Shown here one piece after another: positions 1-9,269 of a DNA stretch of 24,949 nucleotides (its first letter is position 1; every line of letters starts with the position of its first letter). The stretch covers positions 1-24,949 of IMG/VR virus record IMGVR_UViG_3300035438_000486; one strand, 5' to 3'. The notes beneath the pieces were generated by a model, which saw only the letters and a program-made list of their open reading frames with translations, was not told where the DNA came from and did no database searches. The DNA comes from a virus (lineage: Duplodnaviria; Caudoviricetes). The translations under genes were made by a program, and so were the position numbers.

Positions 1-1051
1 GGATTACCGTGCTTTGCAACCCGCCGTTCATGTAATTCCTCGGGCCTTTCGCGTCTCGCGCCATAATCGGCGGCAGCGTTTCAGGCCACACAACAGCCTG
101 GTCTAGCACCCCCATGCCATCGGTCGGACGACCGATGGCGGGCGACACGTCACCGCTGATCGGCGTCTGCGTGTGGTGGAAGGCGAGGACACCGTTGCGA
201 CCCCCGCCGCTCTTGCCACGGGCCATTGATGGCCCGTGGGTTTCCGTGCTCGCGTTCAGTTCGCTGTCCCACGCGATGACGCCCGCTTCGGAACTGCTGT
301 TAACGCGGACGGTTGAGGAAGTCGTTTCAACCGTCCGCTGGTAGCTGTTGTACGCGGTTACACCGCCCTCAACGCCGCCTCCAGTGCTGGCGGCAGCGAT
401 TTCCCTCGACTGCTGGCGCGGCGAATGATGCCCGCACACGCCTTCGCGGAGAGCCAGAACTTCGGCGGGATCGACGCCGCCGGTTCGAGCAGCGAGGATA
501 AAGACACGCACCCGGCGCTGGGGAGGCCCAAAGTGCTGCAAGTCAAGCACACGCCACGCGGCCACGGCGGTAGGTCCCACTGCTCGACCGCCCCGAAGGT
601 ATTTGACCTTTCCGTGCTTGTCGGCTCGAAGAGCGCCGTCTGCGACCAGATCGCGCCCGACGATGGTAGAGAGAACTTCGGCAAAGTCATGCCCGTTGTT
701 GGAAGAGAACGCCCCGGCCACATTCTCCCAGAGCAGGTACGGCGCGTCAGATTCGCGCCAAATGCGGACTTGCTCGTGGAACAGTGATGACCGTGCGCCG
801 GTCAACCCTGCGCGTTTGCCAGCGACGGACAAGTCCTGGCACGGCGAACCGCCCGAGAGCAGCGTAATCCCGCGATAGTCAGCCCCGTTGATCTGTGTCA
901 CGTCGCCATCAAGCCGCGTGTCAGGCCAGAGATGGCGCAGCACGGCGCGGGCGTGTGGCTCAATCTCGGCGTGTGCCGCCGCATGGAATCCCGCGGCCTC
1001 TAGGCCAAGCGAGAGCCCCCCAGCGCCAGCGAATAGCTCGGCGTAGGTCAC
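1..1051 (-). CDS. DNA (cytosine-5) methyltransferase, 3' end outside the window
   Basis: Not in the ORF track because no stop lies in the window. Hand translation from GTG 1051 (GTGA overlap with the upstream stop) is open to the window edge: motif I ELFAGAGG, motif IV GGSPCQDLS, motif VI WENV, motif VIII PQRRVRVF, then a modular variable region. Confidence 0.95.
   Translation of the reverse strand, partial: MTYAELFAGAGGLSLGLEAAGFHAAAHAEIEPHARAVLRHLWPDTRLDGDVTQINGADYRGITLLSGGSPCQDLSVAGKRAGLTGARSSLFHEQVRIWRESDAPYLLWENVAGAFSSNNGHDFAEVLSTIVGRDLVADGALRADKHGKVKYLRGGRAVGPTAVAAWRVLDLQHFGPPQRRVRVFILAARTGGVDPAEVLALREGVCGHHSPRQQSREIAAASTGGGVEGGVTAYNSYQRTVETTSSTVRVNSSSEAGVIAWDSELNASTETHGPSMARGKSGGGRNGVLAFHHTQTPISGDVSPAIGRPTDGMGVLDQAVVWPETLPPIMARDAKGPRNYMNGGLQSTVI
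116..139. repeat. Perfect inverted repeat inside the MTase variable region
   Basis: GCCATCGGTCG-ga-CGACCGATGGC, 11-bp arms. Confidence 0.9.
216..239. repeat. Perfect inverted repeat inside the MTase variable region
   Basis: CCACGGGCCAT-tg-ATGGCCCGTGG, 11-bp arms. Confidence 0.9.
305..338. repeat. Perfect inverted repeat inside the MTase variable region
   Basis: GCGGACGGTTGA-ggaagtcgtt-TCAACCGTCCGC, 12-bp arms. Confidence 0.9.
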
Positions 1052-3634: not shown

Positions 3635-5383
3635 TCAATTCCGCTCCTTCCATCGTGGAATCATCGGGCCATGCACTTCTTCGGCTTCCCGAATGCTGAC
3701 CGTGCGCTGTGTCAAGCGCAGGGTGCGGAAGTCCCACTGGACAGGGATGTCGCACACGCCGCCCATGCGATTCTTGTCCACGATCAGCCAAGTGTCGGCC
3801 AAGTTGCCAGCGCGAGTAAAGCGCGAGTGATCGAACAGCAGCACCTGGTGTGAATCGTTCTCAATCGCACTGCCACCCATCAACCCCTGACTAATCGGGC
3901 GCTCCGATCTCGCCGCGCTGGTCTGGCGGTTGAACTGGCTTAACGTCACCATCCGCACGTTCAAGCTCTGCGCCAACTCCCGTAGTTGGTGCGATACCGC
4001 TTCGATGCGGTCATGGATGCTGACCAGATTGCTCACCGACGCGAGTTGGATGTAGTCCATGATGAAGTAGCTGGACCCACTCACCTCGGCATGATGTTTG
4101 ATACACGCGGCGACATCGGCCATGCGCGACAAGGGGCGACGGTTGACCAGCACATGACCACCCGTGCGCTCGCGGATCTCGTTCAGCGAGCGAGCGGCCC
4201 TGCCGTACGCCGCTTGGTCAAACGACGGCCCCTGCTCCAGCAGCGTCACCGACTCGTTGCTCACCACCGACAGCAGCCGTGTTGCCAACTCACTGCGCCC
4301 CATCTCCAGCGACAGGAACGTCACCGTCTCACCGTGTTCGATGGCGCGAGCGGCGAGGTTGATGCCGATCAACGACTTGCCAGTGCCCGTGTTGGCCCCG
4401 ATGGTAATCAGCCAACTCTTGGCGATGCCCACGCCGCCACCGCTGGACCCGCACACACGGTTCCACTGATCGAGCGGCGTCGGCACGGCGTCCACAGGAG
4501 CCAGCTTCTCGGTCAGCATCTGGTCCAGCGTGTCGCCCGTGATGCTGTCAAACGCCACGGCTGGCGGCTCGGCTCCAATAGGGGTGGTGGTGCTGATGAT
4601 CCCCTGCCACACCGTCGCCCAGTCATCCCCATGCGCCTGCACCGACTGGTGCAAATCACAGAGGTCTTTCATGATCTGCTCGCGGTGCTTCACGTCGCGC
4701 AGGATGCGGGCCTTGGGGAGGGATGCGGAGATCGCCGCCACCATCGTCGCGCCTCCCTCGTCAGGCTCCTGCCACACGATCACCTCACGCCCTGACAACA
4801 GCGCAGCGTAGTCTGGCTTCCACTGCGAAGCGCCAGGGAGGCCCACCACCGTCACGCCACGCTGCCAGCCGGCATGACAGTCAGACTCCCCTTCTACGAT
4901 CAACACGGGGCCGGTAGATGCGGCCAGCACGTCCTGCCCGTACAGCGGCGTCCCTTCCCCGTCCCGATCCCAGAACGTGCCCTTGCGGGTGCGGCACTTG
5001 GTGCGGATGGTGGTGCCATCGGCGCGACGGTACGGCATGGCGACAATCGCATCGCCATACTTTCCGATTCTCTCTTCAACGCCTGCCTTTGCCAGCCCTG
5101 CCAGCGCCAACCCCTTCCGCTCGGCGTACTCATGCAGCGTCAAGCCGCTCGGCGCGGCATCGTCTGGCAACGCCACGCCCAACGCCTCGCCCAAGGTCGC
5201 CAGCGGCTCGGTGAAGCCACAGGCCGCACAGCCCCATGCATGGTCGCCAAGCCATGCGCTGCTGGTGCTGTCGTTGTGCCGAGTGCAGCGGAAGGCAATG
5301 GCTTTCCCGCTCTTCTTCGCGCCATGACGGCCACGAAGGAGAGCAGACTTGAGAAGGCCGTGCGCGTCGAGCGTGTTCACCAC
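3635..5383 (-). CDS. bifunctional primase-helicase (Zn finger + TOPRIM + DnaB-like SF4 helicase)
   Basis: CTRH...CAAC Zn finger; IVEGESD and EPDEGG TOPRIM motifs; GANTGTGKS Walker A, FLSLEM, IMDYIQL, LSQFNR, IENDSH, DKNRMG. Confidence 0.95.
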   Translation of the reverse strand: MVNTLDAHGLLKSALLRGRHGAKKSGKAIAFRCTRHNDSTSSAWLGDHAWGCAACGFTEPLATLGEALGVALPDDAAPSGLTLHEYAERKGLALAGLAKAGVEERIGKYGDAIVAMPYRRADGTTIRTKCRTRKGTFWDRDGEGTPLYGQDVLAASTGPVLIVEGESDCHAGWQRGVTVVGLPGASQWKPDYAALLSGREVIVWQEPDEGGATMVAAISASLPKARILRDVKHREQIMKDLCDLHQSVQAHGDDWATVWQGIISTTTPIGAEPPAVAFDSITGDTLDQMLTEKLAPVDAVPTPLDQWNRVCGSSGGGVGIAKSWLITIGANTGTGKSLIGINLAARAIEHGETVTFLSLEMGRSELATRLLSVVSNESVTLLEQGPSFDQAAYGRAARSLNEIRERTGGHVLVNRRPLSRMADVAACIKHHAEVSGSSYFIMDYIQLASVSNLVSIHDRIEAVSHQLRELAQSLNVRMVTLSQFNRQTSAARSERPISQGLMGGSAIENDSHQVLLFDHSRFTRAGNLADTWLIVDKNRMGGVCDIPVQWDFRTLRLTQRTVSIREAEEVHGPMIPRWKERN

Positions 5384-7250: not shown

Positions 7251-8080
7251 GGCTTCTCCTTGGCCCACTGGGCACAAAAGGCCGACACATCGCAGTACAT
7301 GGTGCATCGCTTCGCTTCGCCCTTCCGCTCAACGATCTCGTAGCCTTCGCCAGCTTCGCCCAAGTCCTCCTCACGATCCGCCACCCGCACGGCCCGCTTC
7401 GCTCCCGGCTTCATCAGCGCAAACTTGGATGAGGACATCCACCGCTCCTCGTCCGTACACTGAATGTCCACGCCATTGCTCGCAGCCCGATGGATCGCCA
7501 CACGCTCCATGACGTACTCCTCGGCCTCCTCAAGCGTCCACAGTGGGACGTGGATAGACTGGATCGCCGCCTGCGGGTAGCCTGGATCGCGCAGTGCCTC
7601 TGACTTGCGCCAGTCGCGGAAGATGCCGATCACCTCCAGCGTGTTGATCGTGTGCCCGTTCTTGTGGGCCAGCCAGCGCAGGACGTTCAACTGGCGCGTC
7701 CACGAGTCGCTGCCGTTCTTCTTGAACACCGTCGTCACCTTGTAGTCCGACAGCTTGTGCATCTCAAGGTGCATGGAGTCCACCTGACCAGAAAGCTGCC
7801 ACCCGCCAACGTCGGCGTACAAACGCTCCTCGACGACCATGCCATGCTGACGCAACCCTGCTCGCTCAAGGATGGTATGCACCGCTTGACCAAGCAACGC
7901 CCAGACACGCTCGGAAACGTCCACCGAGATCGCGTCCTTGTGCTTGGATGACAGCACGCGGATGCGCGGACTGTCGATGAGCTTGGTGACACTGACATCG
8001 CCGCCCCCGATGTAGGGGTCATTCTGCACAGCCGCAACGATCGCGGCTGGCAGGTTGTGCACGTTCGTGATATTCGCCAT
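7247..8080 (-). CDS. PD-(D/E)xK exonuclease, Cas4/RecB-like (277 aa)
   Basis: Start ATG 8080 (TAATG overlap); SVTKLIDSPR, LGQAVHTILE, LSGQVD, LSDYKVT, QLNVL, C-terminal CxxYCxVxxFC cluster. Confidence 0.85.
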   Translation of the reverse strand: MANITNVHNLPAAIVAAVQNDPYIGGGDVSVTKLIDSPRIRVLSSKHKDAISVDVSERVWALLGQAVHTILERAGLRQHGMVVEERLYADVGGWQLSGQVDSMHLEMHKLSDYKVTTVFKKNGSDSWTRQLNVLRWLAHKNGHTINTLEVIGIFRDWRKSEALRDPGYPQAAIQSIHVPLWTLEEAEEYVMERVAIHRAASNGVDIQCTDEERWMSSSKFALMKPGAKRAVRVADREEDLGEAGEGYEIVERKGEAKRCTMYCDVSAFCAQWAKEKP

Positions 8081-9234: not shown

Positions 9235-9269
9235 CAAAAAGCCACTGAGATCATCCCAGTGGCTTTTTG
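9235..9269. terminator. bidirectional intrinsic terminator
   Basis: CAAAAAGCCACTG-agatcatcc-CAGTGGCTTTTTG, a perfect 13-bp inverted repeat with a T-tract on either strand, just downstream of the glycosyltransferase. Confidence 0.9.

Follow-up and report, generated by a model that had tools for sequence, protein, structure and literature searches.

The window analysed here, a stretch of 24,949 nt of phage DNA, begins within a C5 cytosine methyltransferase gene (1..1051, minus strand, cut by the window edge; PF00145, E 2.8e-35) whose variable region reads as a row of small modules. Since three of these modules each contain a perfect inverted repeat, the locus raises the question of whether the hairpins are working parts of a cassette system that shuffles recognition modules, as the first-pass annotation had proposed, or have another origin. 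Module 1 (281..361, minus strand, 27 aa; also found in P0003, P0011/L002 and P0019) holds a strandless repeat with 12-bp arms and a 10-nt loop at 305..338. The repeat of module 2 (191..280, minus strand, 30 aa) lies at 216..239 with 11-bp arms and a 2-nt loop (227-228), and that of module 3 (110..190, minus strand, 27 aa) at 116..139, again with 11-bp arms and a 2-nt loop (127-128), which is the site of a Pro/Thr flip. Module 4 (1..109, minus strand) runs on to motif IX beyond the edge and has an imperfect repeat only. All three perfect repeats, one apiece for modules 1 to 3, were thus found where they had been described.

The complete gene was recovered at locus L001, which is 100% identical to the window copy and encodes 416 aa with motifs I-VIII, the array, and motifs IX and X in this order. 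Motifs I-X in canonical order and the catalytic Pro-Cys identify the product as a C5 cytosine DNA methyltransferase; M.HhaI was the top PDB match, and residues 349-373 align with the motif IX region of M.HhaI. The complete phage record that carries L001 (G001, 38,212 bp) differs from the window by one base. The window sequence is present in lake-water metagenomes (24 runs among the matches listed, four of which may be its source), and contigs of two Gemmatimonadaceae MAGs carry related genes. The window also encodes a GlcNAc-transferase-like protein (PF11397; 9286-10257, minus strand). In many distant freshwater-phage homologues of the methyltransferase, the gene is split after about 250 residues, with the array and motifs IX-X in a separate frame (for example L011, L013, L014, L016, L018-L020, L023 and many of L007-L166); a catalytic frame without motif IX occurred in 104 of 166 loci, some of which are contig ends. 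Two such split homologues, L040 and L107, have a 13-bp palindrome with a 1-nt loop just before motif IX. Downstream of the methyltransferase in L003, short direct repeats and palindromes are clustered at 7266-8054, possibly an origin or terminal region.

A second reading frame is nested in the gene (358..723, minus strand, other frame; 121 aa from ATG, 147 aa from stop to stop). Read from 723 to 358, it has its stop codon at the first Gly-Val junction, the start of the module array. The frame is open, with a conserved C-terminal motif, in 19/19 methyltransferase loci (22 loci examined, duplicates included). It matches unnamed viral clusters in the ESM Atlas, and no match was found in PHROG or PDB. 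By layout, the arrangement resembles M.EcoHK31I, where, in the part of the description used here (PMC2836561), a second polypeptide is likewise encoded in a frame nested inside a C5 methyltransferase gene. The nested chain of M.EcoHK31I, however, supplies motif IX, whereas here the main frame retains a motif IX-like stretch. Motif IX is not confined to the nested chain, as it would be in a two-chain enzyme of this type, since main-frame residues 349-373 align with the motif IX region of M.HhaI.

A search with the variable region yielded 44 proteins, and 15 further arrays were added from DNA loci. These 59 arrays, of 39-282 residues each, fell into 52 architectures when modules were assigned by hand-made signatures, and 16 of the 139 co-occurring module pairs were found in both orders. 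Modules comprise 27-33 residues, and an array contains up to about nine of them. Module 3 alone has at least ten different neighbours on either side, and P0005 contains modules 3 and 4 of the window while modules 1 and 2 are absent. The same variability was seen in two lake runs, X5 and X7, in which the contig of a relative has 281 nt in place of 182 nt, in frame, from the first linker to the module-3 linker; a second set of runs (X1, X9, X11 and X15) gave the reference form only, at a coverage with holes. The proposed gain, loss and reordering of modules within an in-frame array is therefore borne out: order and number vary among relatives, and natural variation, rather than engineered swaps, demonstrates that the units are exchangeable between enzymes. 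The borders had been described as Gly-Val junctions. These are present in the window at 361, 280, 190 and 109, but Gly-Val is not general (before module 3, Gly occurs in 19/45 and Ala in 13/45 cases), and the border feature common to modules is a V-x-A-F/W/Y start. The DNA at the window junctions shows mutual similarity at the codon level only. By-eye assignment placed a Thr-Leu-like (TL-like) pair in most modules; in modules 2 and 3 of the window this pair is altered, while the tandem units are clear. In the sections of PMC2413257 available to us, the TL motif in M.HhaI and M.HaeIII is flanked by DNA-contacting residues and served to define multispecific target-recognition domains (TRDs). By analogy, each module may recognise a sequence of its own.

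The three hairpins exceed chance, as had been estimated. When the 121 codons of the region were resampled synonymously, one hairpin arose in 277 of 20,000 runs and two in none of 20,000, and shuffled windows averaged 0.05 such hairpins. Throughout the 24.9-kb window, a single further hairpin (arms of at least 10 bp, loop of at most 30 nt) was detected, at 9235-9269. This 13-bp hairpin is terminator-like and, with its A/T tails, is likely a bidirectional terminator. The imperfect repeat that had been noted in module 4 (21-32 with 62-73, 10/12 pairs) is present, but its quality is at chance level, being equalled in 20 of 223 other 110-nt tiles of the window.

To place the hairpins among relatives, which in all counts across arrays are related rather than independent samples, we used 17 clade genes with DNA, with duplicates and the non-methyltransferases L181, L197 and L199 excluded, and scored perfect repeats with arms of at least 10 bp and loops of at most 12 nt. 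The arrays (7,074 nt) contained 18 hairpins and the flanks (37.8 kb) five, whereas the conserved parts of the genes (14.4 kb) were free of them; the synonymous null for the 17 arrays had a mean of 0.18 and a maximum of 2 in 1,000. They occurred in 8 of the 17 genes and were lacking in 9. Across nine phage records, 20 hairpins in 4,656 nt of array compared with 8 in 222 kb elsewhere, which corresponds to 4.3 versus 0.036 per kb, an approximately 120-fold concentration. The expected excess over synonymous shuffles thus holds for the clade but not for homologues at large, as 127 variable regions of mostly distant homologues had 5 hairpins in 78.9 kb, equal to background. A genome-wide palindrome excess was ruled out by the density of 0.036 per kb in the phages and of 0.08-0.13 per kb in 278 kb of the two Gemmatimonadaceae MAGs. 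For one widespread module, W, we fetched 120 loci, 91 of them distinct. A hairpin of 10-11 bp was present in 9 of the 91, and in the other 82 nothing exceeded 8 bp, indicating that hairpins are an acquired, lineage-linked state of modules and not their definition. Further hairpins occurred nearby in 6 of the 9 hairpinned but in 2 of the 82 hairpin-free loci, the loci being related and of unequal length. A rule of one hairpin per module is excluded by the hairpin-free copies of W, the nine clade genes without a hairpin and the distant arrays at background.

This distribution bears directly on the proposed cassette system, in which a recombinase would recognise each hairpin as folded single-stranded DNA and excise or insert modules, as in integrons. 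One hairpin in each of the first three window modules, diverse hairpin sequences and shuffled module order would all suit such a system. The hairpin centres, however, are 40, 37 and 18 nt away from the nearest junction and hence inside modules; a single hairpin centred on a junction was noted, in L005. According to the portion of PMC3053210 at hand, attC sites are imperfect repeats of 57-141 bp with core boxes at cassette borders. At the module ends we found no such palindrome, the repeats here being perfect, 23-34 bp long and internal, and neither GTTRRRY nor RYYYAAC boxes occur on either strand of window positions 1-400. Among phage-encoded functions, five phage records, two of them complete, contained neither a tyrosine integrase (PF00589) nor a reverse transcriptase (PF00078) as expected of a diversity-generating retroelement, and a Pfam scan of the 103 ORFs of G001 likewise returned no integrase and no reverse transcriptase. 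Most modules lack hairpins altogether, and the same module was seen with, without, or with a different hairpin, so that neither the supposed bond between module and hairpin nor a role of hairpins as attC-like marks defining each cassette finds support. The integron-like reading is largely refuted, and we regard it as very improbable.

Comparison of the same modules between lineages pointed to another origin. The L002 copy of module 1 pairs at 7 of 12 arm positions, and its loop matches the reverse complement of the window loop at 8 of 10 bases (counted directly on the sequences). For module 3, L173 and L008 are hairpin-free, L170 carries a different hairpin at a shifted position, and the L005 copy combines an inverted loop with paired Ile-to-Val and Asp-to-Asn changes in the arms; the same pair of differences separates P0037 from P0049 and P0053. 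Compensatory arm changes were found in L005, L273 and L302/L307, and repeats that are imperfect in one lineage are perfect in another (module 1 in L002 versus L001, module 3 in L173 versus L001, and module W). Exact loop inversion was observed in DNA in five pairs (L001/L005, L234/L266, L211/L273, L250/L285 and L302/L273). Arm homogenisation and spacer inversion are the outcomes of template switching in the accounts we drew on (extracts of PMC5453318 and PMC8604942). The 26 distinct hairpins have arms of 10-14 bp, and 8 of the 26 have loops of 1-2 nt, which are too short to fold, so that the symmetry comes from copying. Arm lengths are bimodal, null-like up to 8 bp, with none at 9 and a peak at 10-14, and this matches yeast coding DNA, in which spacer inversions were reported only with arms over 9 bp in the part of PMC8604942 consulted. 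Two other sources of the repeats were rejected. Weak repeat seeds encoded by the protein were ruled out by the lack of an excess of 5-8 bp arms in the arrays, and a shared hairpin core as target for the enzyme's own crosslinks (compare PMC6357072, in excerpt) by the best 4-mer occurring in 14/26 only, a raw count without a null.

Loop flips appear to be fast. At the protein level, P0009 and P0054 (474 residues) differ, start codon aside, solely at the Pro/Thr flip site, and P0043 differs from P0057 and P0060 solely at an Asp/Val site, which in L005 forms the 1-nt loop; other near-identical protein pairs had differences elsewhere or none. Both exchanges can also be reached by single-base changes. 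Pro and Thr were each seen on five module-3 backgrounds, and the loop codon of module 2 in homologues is Ser or Leu, as loop inversion predicts (the Leu state at protein level only). Peptides compatible with a perfect hairpin made up 58/63 for module 3, 15/19 for module 2 and 19/19 for the junction, as compared to 5 of 1,290 background trials; the counts include cluster members and hence are not independent. The 19 junction peptides, which are those at the 1-nt-loop site of L005, are of 9 types, and the hairpin that they all fit has 13 bp. In run X5, reference-identical contigs stop at L001 position 4923 and resume at 4926, on either side of the module-3 loop, and a 54-nt piece has two other letters; X7 forks at the same base. 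This hints that both loop states coexist in X5 and X7, while the four other runs gave the reference form only. The flips convert Ser-Leu to Gln-Arg or Val-Val to Asp-Asp just before the TL-like pair, and by-eye scoring placed 12 of 17 hairpins within four codons of such a pair (binomial p about 0.001), while several lie away from any TL. Two further observations were made at protein level only. Residue 245 of the P0043 cluster shows a second recurrent Val/Asp difference, and its flanking peptide could be another 1-nt-loop palindrome. In P0029 and P0035, module 2 breaks off immediately before its hairpin and another module follows, the outcome expected of a deletion stimulated by the hairpin.

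Judged from sequence comparison, the locus encodes an in-frame array of 27-33-residue modules that are likely small target-recognition units, and its hairpins are probably template-switch products and not recombinase sites. Co-infecting phages would exchange modules by recombination at the short, similar V-x-A-F linkers, with the frame kept; G001 also encodes a primase-helicase, an exonuclease and a resolvase-like nuclease, which is compatible with ordinary recombination. In a weak inverted repeat, a template switch would then overwrite one arm with a copy of its partner; those switches that leave the TL-like motif intact would survive. Once the arms reach about 10 bp, the palindrome may re-perfect itself, and its loop may invert repeatedly, each time with one or two codons altered; such flips would change residues near the TL-like motif, which is predicted to read DNA. 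Hairpins may pile up in the array where changes are tolerated, where recombination-linked DNA synthesis is probably frequent, and where hairpinned modules are passed between phages. In yeast, quasipalindrome mutations accompany break repair (bioRxiv 2023.08.09.552703, in part). Tolerance alone does not readily explain the difference in density between array and remaining genome, nor the 127 distant arrays at background. In combination with arms over 9 bp that renew themselves, hairpins that spread as modules are exchanged, and repair synthesis that is mutagenic, it could suffice for the concentration.

Selection for switchable or exchange-prone modules is a live alternative to this account by tolerance and self-renewal. 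The hairpins would then be a selected, recombinase-free contingency device that either switches modules reversibly between two states or promotes their loss and exchange, and that is retained for diversifying methylation specificity against host restriction. The strong local concentration, the narrow arm range, the nearness to TL-like pairs, the presence of flips among the few differences between near-identical proteins, the recurrence of both loop states on five module-3 backgrounds and the unitig ends of X5 and X7 exactly at the module-3 loop, with their hint of coexisting states, are all consistent with such a device. Parallel flips, on the other hand, arise by template switching without selection and can mimic it (PMC8604942, extracts), most modules and 9/17 genes do without hairpins, and length variation is also seen among distant arrays that have none. 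On balance we consider a selected device possible but doubtful, and the same holds for the fuller form of the idea, a recombinase-free diversity generator in which shuffled mini-recognition modules would each act as a reversible two-state switch, owing to a self-renewing palindrome (10-14 bp) at the DNA-reading loop, and the array would reprogramme methylation combinatorially.

Two readings that dispense with such a role appear much weaker. Folded as DNA, the region does better than its shuffles (z -3.07), which would agree with selection for mRNA stems that set the pace at which each module is translated or folds, but perfect Watson-Crick symmetry at 1-2 nt loops and exact loop inversion are unexpected of RNA stems and the stems are patchily present; we hold this to be very unlikely. 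It is similarly hard to credit a functionless array, with modules that serve as inert filler or arrived as mobile palindromic inserts and with hairpins that persist only for lack of a function. Drastic flips such as Val-Val to Asp-Asp and Ser-Leu to Gln-Arg do persist in several genomes and array length ranges from 39 to 282 residues, but modules are kept in frame with their TL-like pair, usually with the other arm being the one overwritten, and hairpin-free versions of the same modules in many phages indicate that the hairpins are not the inserted unit.

Multispecific C5 methyltransferases are known from the Bacillus phages SPR and phi3T, with TRDs of about 40-50 residues, and were reportedly treated by Trautner et al. 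in 1996. The window enzyme shares with them its phage origin and a tandem arrangement of exchangeable units, here with putative TL-like pairs, that lies between motifs VIII and IX (via PMC2413257, in part), but its units are shorter (27-33 residues), drawn from a large pool reordered in nature and marked by palindromes, and its multispecificity is a prediction. Template switching in coding DNA, as far as described in the portions of PMC8604942 and PMC5453318 used, likewise involves arms of over 9 bp that become perfect, spacers that invert, and amino-acid changes that are reversible and occur in parallel; there, however, the events are scattered over the genome (39 yeast genes), whereas here a single array in a single phage lineage shows an approximately 120-fold concentration. 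In the domain movement (DoMo) of Helicobacter pylori S subunits, recognition domains also shift position and number within a gene, probably via recombination at flanking repeats (PMC3077401, in part), but there large TRDs occupy two or three slots between real flanking repeats, as opposed to up to about nine small modules with linker microhomology only and internal palindromes. Integron attC cassettes (PMC3053210, partial text) likewise form arrays with palindromes of variable sequence, and differ in that neither core boxes (positions 1-400) nor an integrase (five phage records) were found here and the hairpins are internal, too short and too perfect. The coding palindromes of Nematomorpha mitochondria (PMC6649704, excerpt) are also perfect inverted repeats with both arms coding, but are up to 284 bp long and occur in conserved regions throughout the genome. 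In the open-licence literature, we found no paper on palindrome-laden phage methyltransferase arrays. Each ingredient is known, namely multispecific phage enzymes, domain movement (PMC3077401, in part) and template switching.

The arrays offer, as a natural library, dozens of swappable candidate recognition modules of very small size for C5 methyltransferases, which could help to decode and engineer specificity. In addition, they provide a case of probable template switching that is concentrated in a single region of a protein and flips defined codons reversibly, and thereby make it testable whether selection can maintain template-switch hotspots as contingency loci or whether these are mere mutational scars. 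Should the flips alter specificity, this would be phase variation without repeat tracts or a recombinase.
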